Assembly (NCBI GenBank): GCA_964497315.1
Contig: CAZCCH010000015.1
Span: 1-33,743 of the forward strand
Source: an uncultured Planctomycetia bacterium
Lineage (GTDB): Bacteria > Omnitrophota > Gorgyraeia > Taenaricolales > CAZCCH01
DNA: 33,743 nt
Direction: 5' to 3'
The translations under genes were made by a program, and so were the position numbers. Shown in pieces: positions 11,894-14,562 of this stretch. Every line of letters starts with the position of its first letter. The stretch's first letter is position 1. The notes below the pieces were generated by a model. The model was not told the origin of the DNA and made no database searches. It saw only the letters and a list, made by a program, of their open reading frames with translations.

Positions 11894-11923
11894 TTGATAG
11901 GATTCGGCCGTAAGTGATATAAT
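11894..11923 (+). promoter_or_regulatory. Sigma70-type promoter for the cupin/PlpD-like operon
   Basis: TTGATA -35, 17-18 nt spacer, extended -10 TGaTATAAT. Confidence 0.45.
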
Positions 11924-11952
11924 ATTACCACTATAATAGGGAGAGAGTAAAA

Positions 11953-12225
11953 ATGGGTGAGATAAAGGTGTCAAAGCCAAGCAATGAAGAACTTGAAGGA
12001 ATGGGAGTTTTTACCTGGCCTATATGGGAGAAAGAGGTTTCAAGGTTTGATTGGCATTATGATGATAAAGAGACCTGCTATTTGCTTGAAGGTAAGGTAG
12101 TTGTAACATCTAAAGATGGTGACTCTGTCAATTTTGGAGCAGGTGACTTAGTGGTTTTCCCCAAGGGCTTAAGTTGTTTTTGGGATATAAAAGAAAGCGT
12201 TAAGAAGCATTATAATTTTGGTTAG
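11953..12225 (+). CDS. Small cupin-fold protein (cupin_3/DUF861-like)
   Basis: 90 aa; GKVVVTSKDGDSVNFGAGDLVVFPKG beta-barrel motif. Confidence 0.55.
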   Translation: MGEIKVSKPSNEELEGMGVFTWPIWEKEVSRFDWHYDDKETCYLLEGKVVVTSKDGDSVNFGAGDLVVFPKGLSCFWDIKESVKKHYNFG

Positions 12226-12234
12226 AAGTTTTTT

Positions 12235-14562
12235 ATGCGAAACCTACAAAACAGACAAAATAAGACATTTATCTTAAAACCTCCTGGGACGTATAAAACT
12301 AAACGCAAGGAGCGTCTAATTAAACCTACCAAACGAAAACCATCCATAAAGAAAAAAATCACTGTAATATTTCTTCTTGTATCAATAGCATTATGCTCTG
12401 ATTTATTTGCAGAAAGGCCAAGCTATGCAAATCAGCGCCGACCTAAAATTGGATTAGTCTTAGGTGGCGGTGGTGCTAGGGGTGCTGCACATGTAGGGGT
12501 ATTAAGGGTTTTAGAAGAAAATAGAGTACCGATAGATTATGTTGTAGGTACTAGCATGGGTTCTATAGTAGGTGGTTTGTATGCATCGGGCGTTTCCGTA
12601 GAAGAGCTAGGGGAGATATTTGAATCTATTGACTGGAAAGGCCTCTTTACAGATAGGCCATCACGCAAAGATTTGCCTTTTCGTCATAAGCAAGACAGAA
12701 GAAAACTAATTGATTTTGAAATGGGTTTTAATAAAGGGAAATTGTCTATGCCTAAAGGTATTATTGCAGGTCAGAAGCTAGAATTTATTTTAAAGTCAAA
12801 AACCCTGCATGTTACAGGCGTTGAAGATTTTAATCAACTTTCAATTCCTTATAGGGCCGTAGCCGCTGATATTGAAACAGGCCAAAAGGTTGTTTTAGAT
12901 AGAGGCAATCTTGCTGAGGCGATAAGGGCCAGCATGTCAGTACCAGGTGTGTTTTCTCCTGTTGAGATAGATAATCATATATTAGTAGATGGCGGGATTG
13001 TGGATAATTTACCTGTGGATGTAGTGCGGGATATGGGTGCTGATATCGTTATCGCGGTTGATGTAGGTACAAAGCTCACTAAGCGCGAACAGCTAAAATC
13101 CGCCCTAGATATCTCCATGCAGGTAATAAGTATTTTAACCTTACAGAATGTTAATGAGCAAATTTCTAAGCTTACCAAAAAAGACTTATTAATTACACCC
13201 GAGCTAGGTGATACCTCTTCTTCGGATTTCCATAATGCTCCAGAGATTGTTAAGATTGGAGAGGAATCGGCACGTAATTTTACAAAACAACTAGAGAGAT
13301 ATTCTGTTTCAGATGAGGAGTATCAAATCTTTTTAACAAAACAAAGAAAAAAAGAATTAAAATCAATAAAGATTGATTTTATGGAGGTTACTTCTACGGG
13401 AGGGGCGGCACCTCAAAGGATACAGGCAAAGGTAAAGACAAAGTCAAATACAGAATTAGACCTTGATGTCCTTCAGGAGGATTTAACACGCATATATGCA
13501 ATGGGGGAGTTTGAAAAAGCAGATTTTAAAATTCTTGAAAAACAAGACAAGACAGGTCTTTTAATTAATACTACGGAAAAATCCTGGGGTCCTAACTATT
13601 TACGTTTTGGGCTAAATATCACAGACGATTTTGAAGGTGATAGTTATTATAATTTTCTTACGGAATATACCCGCACACAAGTTAACGCACTTGGTGCTGA
13701 ATGGAAGACTGAGGCCCAGATAGGCAGAACGCGCAAGGTGCTCACTCAATTTTATCAGCCGTTGGATTATGCAGACCGTTTCTTTATTGTACCTAGTATC
13801 GAATACAGCCGTAGCGTTTCAGATATATTTGAGGGTGATACCCGCACAGCGCAATACAAATTAGCCTACTTGCAAGGAGGTCTTGACGCTGGTATAAATA
13901 TAGGGACTTGCGCATTGGGTAAAATAGGAATTGTAAGGGGTAATACGGAGGCAGGTCCACTTGTAGGTGGTGAGAGCTTGCCGGAATTTAATATTGATAC
14001 AGCTGCATTAACAAGTGAGGTTATATTTGATCAAATAGATGATTCAAATTTTCCTAAATATGGAATAACATCTGATGCTTATCTTTTTCTATCGCAAAGA
14101 GGACTCGGCGCTGATGAAAGTTATAAAAAGTTACAATTCCAAGCAATTAAGGCAACTACCTTTGGTGGTAGACATACCTTCCTTGCAGATATAGAAGGTG
14201 GGGCAAACCTAGGAAAAGAAATACCATTTTATGATGAATTTACAATAGGTGGTTTTTTATCCTTGTCTGGCTATAGAAAAGGCCAATTAAGAGGGCAGTA
14301 TTTTGGTTTAGGGAGGCTTGTATATTATTATAAGGTTGCTAATGCGTCTTCCGGGTTGGCAGATGCTATTTATATTGGTGGTTCTGCTGAGAGTGGAAAT
14401 GTATGGGATAAGAGCAATGAGATTGAAATTGGCAATTTACTCCATGGTGGTAGTGTGTTTTTAGGTGTTGACAATATCTTTGGCCCATTGTATTTAGGGT
14501 ATGGCCTTGCTGAAGATAGTGAAGAGGGAAGGTTTTATCTATTTTTAGGTCAAACATTTTAA
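12235..14562 (+). CDS. Patatin-like phospholipase fused to POTRA/Omp85-type beta-barrel (PlpD-like type Vd autotransporter)
   Basis: Signal peptide; GGGGARG oxyanion loop, GTSMG serine lipase motif, DGG catalytic Asp; C-terminal ~300 aa beta-barrel ending LGQTF. Confidence 0.75.
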   Translation: MRNLQNRQNKTFILKPPGTYKTKRKERLIKPTKRKPSIKKKITVIFLLVSIALCSDLFAERPSYANQRRPKIGLVLGGGGARGAAHVGVLRVLEENRVPIDYVVGTSMGSIVGGLYASGVSVEELGEIFESIDWKGLFTDRPSRKDLPFRHKQDRRKLIDFEMGFNKGKLSMPKGIIAGQKLEFILKSKTLHVTGVEDFNQLSIPYRAVAADIETGQKVVLDRGNLAEAIRASMSVPGVFSPVEIDNHILVDGGIVDNLPVDVVRDMGADIVIAVDVGTKLTKREQLKSALDISMQVISILTLQNVNEQISKLTKKDLLITPELGDTSSSDFHNAPEIVKIGEESARNFTKQLERYSVSDEEYQIFLTKQRKKELKSIKIDFMEVTSTGGAAPQRIQAKVKTKSNTELDLDVLQEDLTRIYAMGEFEKADFKILEKQDKTGLLINTTEKSWGPNYLRFGLNITDDFEGDSYYNFLTEYTRTQVNALGAEWKTEAQIGRTRKVLTQFYQPLDYADRFFIVPSIEYSRSVSDIFEGDTRTAQYKLAYLQGGLDAGINIGTCALGKIGIVRGNTEAGPLVGGESLPEFNIDTAALTSEVIFDQIDDSNFPKYGITSDAYLFLSQRGLGADESYKKLQFQAIKATTFGGRHTFLADIEGGANLGKEIPFYDEFTIGGFLSLSGYRKGQLRGQYFGLGRLVYYYKVANASSGLADAIYIGGSAESGNVWDKSNEIEIGNLLHGGSVFLGVDNIFGPLYLGYGLAEDSEEGRFYLFLGQTF

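Follow-up and report, generated by a model that had tools for sequence, protein, structure and literature searches.

In the current study, we characterized a 775-aa open reading frame (ORF) assigned to the PL-Omp85 family, together with the small cupin gene that precedes it, on contig CAZCCH010000015.1 (assembly GCA_964497315.1) of an uncultured bacterium. The window, by which we mean the whole stretch of DNA that was analysed, comprises 33,743 nt, and its guanine plus cytosine (G+C) content is ~37%. Both genes lie on the forward strand, separated by a spacer of 9 nt (TAG aag ttt ttt ATG) in which there is no terminator, and both had been the subject of an earlier reading of this DNA, referred to below as the original prediction. 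The two genes and the parts of the larger one are as follows, with the basis of each assignment in brackets.

11953..12225, + strand: cupin gene, 90 aa, single-domain Cupin_3/DUF861, TM1112 orthologue (Pfam PF05899, PDB match)
12235..14562, + strand: PL-Omp85 (PlpD family) gene, 775 aa plus stop codon (ORF, Pfam, PDB, homologues, model)
12235..12411, + strand: leader, residues 1-59 (hydropathy, model helix, N-terminal comparison)
12436..13272, + strand: patatin-like phospholipase domain, residues 68-346 (Pfam, identity to PlpD 5fqu, Foldseek match to 5fya)
12466-12483, + strand: oxyanion motif GGGARG, residues 78-83
12553-12555, + strand: codon of Ser107, within the nucleophile elbow GTSMG (residues 105-109)
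12682..12768, + strand: lid segment, residues 150-178, modelled as a β-hairpin (model, conservation, PlpD alignment)
12928-12945, + strand: block III, ASMSVP, residues 232-237
12988-12990, + strand: codon of Asp252, within DGG (residues 252-254)
13378..13578, + strand: predicted single POTRA domain, residues 382-448, β-α-α-β-β (model secondary structure, Foldseek, PF07244 matches in homologues)
13594..14559, + strand: 16-stranded Omp85-type β-barrel, residues 454-775 (Pfam Omp85, strand count in the model, TamA/BamA matches)

Pfam places a Patatin domain (PF01734) at residues 74-263 (E=8e-35) and an Omp85 domain (PF01103) at residues 498-775 (E=5e-11). In a sequence search of the PDB, residues 68-346 matched the lipase domain of Pseudomonas aeruginosa PlpD (5fqu/5fya; E=8e-86), with 49.5% identity to 5fqu over 281 columns; VipD and ExoU were the next matches and were far weaker. 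Three catalytic elements (GGGxRG, GxSxG and DGG) had been described as intact in the original prediction, and all of them were found, along with a fourth block, ASMSVP, giving the four-block patatin domain with a Ser-Asp dyad that is expected of a PL-Omp85 protein. Conservation was judged on an alignment of 75 homologues, which was also the alignment supplied to AlphaFold2. Ser107, Asp252, the oxyanion glycines and many glycines and aromatic residues of the barrel are invariant in this alignment, and the positions of the catalytic blocks are invariant or nearly so. The lid, which forms a hairpin at residues 162-177 of the model, contains an invariant glycine (Gly164) and the motif F-E-M-G-F, which aligns with the β-signal-like K-I-S-F of the PlpD lid.

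Sixteen long strands were counted in the model between residues 454 and 771. The L6 motif, LSGY (residues 677-680; 14263-14274), lies in a structured loop at residues 664-688 and is conserved among the 75 homologues, as is the terminal Phe775 of the C-terminal β-signal RFYLFLGQTF. A 16-stranded barrel ending in Phe had been proposed for this region, and the Pfam match, the strand count and the ...YLFLGQTF terminus agree with it; the L6 loop and terminal aromatic residue are likewise those of the Omp85 barrels of this family. The C-terminal domain is therefore of the Omp85 type, the point on which the original prediction had made its reading depend, and the architecture call is correct. Of the Pfam families it had named, PF01734 and PF01103 match, and PF07244 does not. 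Since the Pfam POTRA model is silent here, the single POTRA predicted between lipase and barrel was called from the structure model, in which residues 382-448 have a confidence score (pLDDT) of ~90, and from homologues, 11 of 21 aligned homologues being matched by PF07244. The domain is too divergent for the Pfam model.

The AlphaFold2 model as a whole has a predicted local distance difference test (pLDDT) score of 89.4 and a predicted template-modelling (pTM) score of 0.83, and is weak only at residues 1-34 and 57-66. A high pTM in a three-domain chain fits a fixed arrangement of patatin domain, POTRA and barrel. When the model was compared with the PDB by Foldseek, PlpD 5fya ranked first, with a template-modelling (TM) score of 0.95 on the target, followed by TamA (4c00, E=5e-18; 8us1/8us2) and then dozens of BamA chains. 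The TamA/BamA alignments span ~415 columns with a root-mean-square deviation of ~3.5 Å; they exceed the 322-residue barrel by ~90 columns and therefore include the POTRA.

At least 7990 homologues were found at E<=1e-10, with the same pair of Patatin and Omp85 Pfam domains and full-length collinearity. Among the matches listed, homologues are ~730-770 aa long with a query coverage of 90-100%, the nearest are 59-63% identical, and those with names belong to Candidatus Omnitrophota, the PVC group or Ratteibacteria, and then to Proteobacteria. One close homologue of 865 aa (P0008) has a Pfam domain of peptide chain release factor RF-1 ahead of Patatin and Omp85, which is probably a gene-call fusion with an upstream gene and no genuine architecture. 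The family occurs mostly in environmental, non-pathogenic lineages.

The closest parallel is the prototype of the PL-Omp85 or "type Vd" proteins, P. aeruginosa PlpD (PA3339; 5fqu, 5fya), which has the same order of parts from signal peptide to terminal Phe. Both proteins have four patatin blocks, a Ser-Asp dyad, a lid (FEMGF here vs. QKISF in PlpD), one POTRA and a 16-stranded Omp85 barrel. Unlike PlpD, the present protein has a polybasic leader that is ~30 residues longer and a POTRA that Pfam does not detect, and it is known from sequence alone; its host is no pathogen but an uncultured low-GC (37%) environmental bacterium, probably a member of the Omnitrophota. Fusobacterium nucleatum FplA, a phospholipase A1 of the same family, has the same architecture according to its published description; it differs in having been studied as a possible virulence factor, with its secretion unclear. 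The PL domain of FplA has also been expressed in recombinant form, and its phospholipase A1 activity is reported to need the Ser-Asp dyad (PMC11116518, PMC5724010). For residues ~380-775, the POTRA and 16-stranded barrel of TamA and BamA (4c00, 8us1, 5d0o) are the best structural match (E ~1e-16 to 5e-18), but their identity is 13-18%, they have three to five POTRA domains rather than one, and the N-terminal lipase is found only here. A PlpD/FplA-like architecture of patatin, POTRA and 16-stranded Omp85 barrel had been proposed at the outset, and it is borne out by Pfam, the PDB match, the model and Foldseek; judged by its sequence and modelled fold, the 775-aa ORF can be placed securely in the PL-Omp85 (PlpD/FplA) family as an intact member.

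The N-terminus is the part in which the protein departs from its relatives. A signal peptide was assigned from hydropathy, from a model helix at residues 38-53 that corresponds to the h-region, and from aligned homologues, which show classical signal peptides with AxA-type sites at the same position. The leader is thus of the Sec type expected of the family, with a hydrophobic h-region at residues ~42-54 followed by a cleavage-type site (...SDLFA↓E). The h-region is preceded by a 36-residue polybasic stretch (pLDDT<50 for residues 1-34), and 68 residues precede the RPKIG motif vs. a family median of 37, making the leader ~30 residues longer. There is no in-frame ATG, GTG or TTG between 12235 and the hydrophobic core of the signal peptide, so the ORF may have either a non-canonical start or a truly long polybasic n-region. 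A perfect Shine-Dalgarno sequence, AAGGAG, lies 6 nt 5′ of an in-frame ATT at 12319 (12307-12321 of the window), and a start at this ATT would give a leader of 40 residues instead of 68. For the ATG at 12235 the Shine-Dalgarno match is weak, as it is for many genes of the window. We also considered whether Cys54 could make the protein a lipoprotein, and rejected this since I-A-L-C makes a poor lipobox and the homologues carry AxA-type sites.

We consider it likely that this gene encodes a periplasm-facing PL-Omp85 phospholipase that serves outer-membrane lipid homeostasis, and that the cupin is unrelated to it. The protein would be exported by Sec, and its barrel would be inserted by the β-barrel assembly machinery (BAM) and anchor the lipase facing the periplasm. 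The POTRA and the patatin phospholipase with its Ser107-Asp252 dyad would remain in the periplasm, docked beneath the barrel. If it behaves like PlpD of P. aeruginosa, it most likely forms a homodimer in which the lid hairpin (FEMGF) would touch barrel strand 1 and gate the lipase, presumably a phospholipase A1, which would deacylate inner-leaflet phospholipids of the outer membrane. Its role would be housekeeping of outer-membrane lipids, with no secretion of a toxin.

The topology, dimerization, A1 specificity and physiological role put forward here follow the literature on the prototype. Hanson et al. (2024; PMC11116518) describe the patatin domain of PlpD as packed against the POTRA and, on the evidence of protease protection and disulfide formation, as exclusively periplasmic, and PlpD itself as a homodimer whose lid binds strand 1 of either barrel through a β-signal-like Ile-Ser-Phe. 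In the same report, many phospholipids were elevated on deletion of plpD, and a role in outer-membrane lipid homeostasis was proposed. Its authors further argue that it is energetically implausible for a folded, dimerized 31-kDa domain to cross the membrane, and in the experiments it recounts no secreted PL domain appeared and injection of purified PlpD and FplA caused no direct toxicity in Galleria larvae (Hanson et al. 2024; PMC11116518). Each sequence feature that this account involves also occurs in the present protein, the lid motif included.

The genomic setting was surveyed at 164 PL-Omp85 loci with flanks of 3-4 kb: 80 loci in genomes of many phyla (35-47% identity), 80 metagenome loci (34-47%) and the four closest relatives (59-63%). 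To gather the metagenome loci, the ten closest relatives were aligned and used as the query, a single-protein query having returned none. No neighbour family occurred in more than 15 of the 164 loci, and the two largest neighbour clusters resemble antisense shadow ORFs. The recurrent real neighbours were TPR proteins (11 loci), MsrA (10), Lnb_N periplasmic-domain proteins (9) and cardiolipin-synthase-type phospholipase D (PLD) proteins (PLDc_2/PLDc; 9 loci, namely L070, 6975-8405, and eight others); the closest-relative locus L086 (6298-7761) has a cardiolipin-synthase-type PLD gene too. The PLD neighbours are a weak hint of a lipid-metabolism context, and the infrequent adjacency of PLD and Lnb_N genes possibly reflects a link to membrane-lipid metabolism. 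The PL-Omp85 gene is therefore a stand-alone gene and the cupin a chance neighbour. The domain architecture, catalytic and structural motifs, family membership and lack of a conserved partner of the PL-Omp85 are all shown by the present analysis.

Several points weigh against a periplasmic housekeeping lipase. The periplasmic model is recent and was established in one organism, P. aeruginosa, with expression in E. coli as well, and an earlier study of PlpD described release of a lipase fragment (Salacha et al. 2010, cited in PMC4104836). Within the present protein, the 36-residue polybasic extension is atypical for the family, and Pfam POTRA (PF07244) gave no match in the 775-aa sequence, even when residues 360-500 were excised and searched at E<=10.

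Among the alternatives, the one that fares best is a classical type Vd autotransporter, in which barrel and POTRA would move the patatin domain to the cell surface and a cleaved, secreted lipase would act on the membranes of hosts or competitors. Dependence on other cells has been suggested for some Omnitrophota, and with Omnitrophota as the named relatives of this protein an attack lipase is conceivable. The architecture is identical to that of PlpD and FplA, for which the model was first proposed; the older literature took PlpD, with its lipase as a released passenger, for the archetype of "type Vd secretion" (Salacha et al. 2010, cited in PMC4104836; PMC5724010). The original prediction adopted this reading and saw in the protein a secreted virulence or interbacterial factor. 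Against it stand the periplasmic evidence for PlpD, with no secreted PL domain and no Galleria toxicity in that account (Hanson et al. 2024; PMC11116518), and the description of Omp85-type barrels as closed to the outside (Heinz and Lithgow, PMC4104836). The family is also huge and found mainly in environmental non-pathogenic lineages, the present host being environmental itself, and neither an immunity-like gene nor any other partner is conserved alongside it at the 164 loci. Passenger export has been put to the test in PlpD and was not seen there (PMC11116518); the type Vd reading is outdated and, as export is contradicted for the prototype, the label "autotransporter" is doubtful for the whole family. 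We therefore regard a surface-delivered attack lipase as unlikely in this bacterium.

More doubtful still is a role as an Omp85-type assembly or transport factor akin to BamA and TamA, to which the patatin domain would be accessory, for example by helping an AsmA/TamB-like partner to insert protein or lipid. In structure, the barrel and POTRA come nearest to TamA and BamA, and an AsmA/DUF748 gene abuts the gene of one close relative (L088), but this adjacency does not recur among the 164 loci and the protein has one POTRA only. BamA-type insertases typically carry VRGY/F in L6, whereas the motif here is LSGY. A catalytic dyad so strictly conserved points to lipolysis as the core function. Membrane destabilization near strands 1 and 16, which would suit such a factor, is discussed for PlpD by Hanson et al. 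(PMC11116518). On balance, an assembly factor is quite improbable.

Least probable is a functional pairing of the lipase with the cupin. The original prediction had seen in the cupin an unusual partner, perhaps a chaperone or inhibitor, and the two genes could in principle form a lineage-specific pair or operon module in which the cupin acts on the lipase as chaperone, inhibitor or small-molecule sensor. The cupin matches Cupin_3 (PF05899) with E=7e-29 and Thermotoga maritima TM1112 (PDB 1lkn/1o5u) from end to end with E=3e-33. TM1112 (1lkn, 1o5u, 2k9z) belongs to the same DUF861/Cupin_3 family, whose members are small stand-alone proteins with variable neighbours; PMC2684688 lists it as a monocupin that is monomeric and metal-free, with no known function. 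The present cupin has just two histidines, His35 and His86, neither of which is at a canonical metal-binding position. It is more conserved than the lipase, with hundreds of homologues of 89-91 aa at 66-79% identity, including proteins of Omnitrophota and Desulfofervidus.

What speaks for a pair is the 9-nt gap without a terminator, a good promoter-like site that lies ahead of the cupin gene only, and the recurrence of this arrangement on every contig of this organism, three contigs from at least three samples. These contigs are, however, 100% identical at the protein level, which means that they represent one organism and give no independent evidence. The conservation check called for in the original prediction was run in both directions, and the pairing is not conserved. 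From the lipase side, a tblastn search with the cupin detected it beside none of the 164 PL-Omp85 loci (0/160 distant and 0/4 closest), its occurrence there being confined to this organism's own contigs; the four closest relatives have as neighbours PilZ/DUF3568, a TylF methyltransferase, an NAD-epimerase with a PLD gene, and an AsmA-like protein. From the cupin side, no patatin gene adjoined the cupin homologues at the three loci examined (75-78% identity), where the neighbours were PC4 and a nitroreductase, an ATP-grasp protein and a PCMT methyltransferase, and LspA and a nitroreductase. L090, one of these three, derives from a sister sample in the same series of studies. The lipase is exported whereas the cupin has no signal peptide; once exported, a periplasmic or outer-membrane protein would therefore be out of the cupin's reach. 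Nor is the 9-nt gap distinctive, because most unrelated genes of the window are also separated by 20 nt or less or overlap. Taken together, the cupin is an unrelated cytoplasmic protein of the TM1112 type and a chance neighbour of the lipase gene, and a functional pair is very improbable.

Two further observations concern the cupin. Its homologues adjoin a nitroreductase-family gene in two lineages and orientations (L090, 3501-4346; L095-L097, 3501-4488), and in Desulfofervidus a YjbQ gene lies less than 2.5 kb from the cupin homologue, as it does in the window; TM1112-type cupins may thus have a weak recurring association with nitroreductase and YjbQ genes. The cupin and PL-Omp85 ORFs are also in one frame, with TAG and three sense codons between them (12223-12237). 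Read-through or recoding of this TAG, fusing the cupin to the lipase, was rejected, as TAG ends 10 of the window's 31 genes and the signal peptide of a fused protein would lie buried; the shared frame is most likely chance, a one-in-three event.

Just as improbable is a re-purposed PL-Omp85 of an Omnitrophota-like lineage, marked by the long polybasic leader and/or by a lineage-specific unit of the cupin, the PL-Omp85 gene, a 119-aa orphan and YjbQ, in which a cytoplasmic, small-molecule-binding cupin could regulate the lipase before export or the lipase of an epibiotic nanobacterium could act on host membranes, adjacency and the atypical N-terminus being the sole indications of it.

The surroundings of the two genes add a candidate promoter and two downstream genes.

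11894..11923, + strand: candidate promoter, sigma-70-like, TTGATA, 18-nt spacer and TG-extended TATAAT (11/12 positions match)
14578..15367, + strand: two downstream genes, a 119-aa multi-pass membrane orphan (14578-14937) and a YjbQ/UPF0047 protein (14948-15367), after gaps of 15 nt and 10 nt

The promoter candidate, whose first base is 11894, occupies the 74-nt intergenic gap 5′ of the cupin gene and is one of the two top-scoring sites within 11400-15500; the next strong promoter-like site after it is at 15421-15448. The scan gave 13 sites in total vs. 12.6 in shuffled sequence, and in view of this lack of excess the promoter is plausible at best. A ribosome-binding site, GGGAGAG, precedes the cupin ATG. 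Co-transcription of cupin and lipase from a shared promoter is likewise plausible from the arrangement of the sequence, and by the identical logic of spacing the genes for the membrane orphan and YjbQ may be on the same transcript too. The gene for the 119-aa membrane protein has a strong ribosome-binding site, AAGGAGGT, and a terminator-like hairpin (14847-14872) falls inside it. Neither Pfam nor NCBIfam matched its product, which stands alone in its 90% cluster and was seen on this organism's contigs only. As partners of the lipase, this protein, YjbQ, a 97-aa Cys-cluster protein and SIR2 were rejected, none of them recurring beside PlpD genes.

Positions 244-18762 of the window hold a run of ~28-29 consecutive genes on one strand with unrelated housekeeping functions, mostly separated by gaps of 20 nt or less or overlapping. 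It includes genes for D-Tyr-tRNA deacylase, inositol monophosphatase, an endonuclease III-like protein, DJ-1, HAD, flavin reductase, an M48 peptidase, Band 7, flavodoxin, SIR2, YjbQ, Fic, VIT1 and acetolactate decarboxylase. Further along, a giant ORF of 3359 aa (+ strand, 19034-29113) has two Pfam matches only: residues 408-672 match an APH-type phosphotransferase/kinase domain, and a stretch near residue 2852 is TAT-signal-like; its G+C content is 41-45% vs. ~37% elsewhere.

With the gene characterized here, a family of thousands across diderm phyla gains another intact PL-Omp85, an ordinary member with no unusual feature beyond its long basic leader. Because very short gaps join unrelated genes in this genome, adjacency alone is no sign of functional pairing. 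The survey of 164 loci presents the family as mainly environmental and stand-alone, without a conserved partner gene, and this stand-alone pattern agrees with the recent view of these proteins as maintaining the lipids of the outer membrane rather than secreting toxins.

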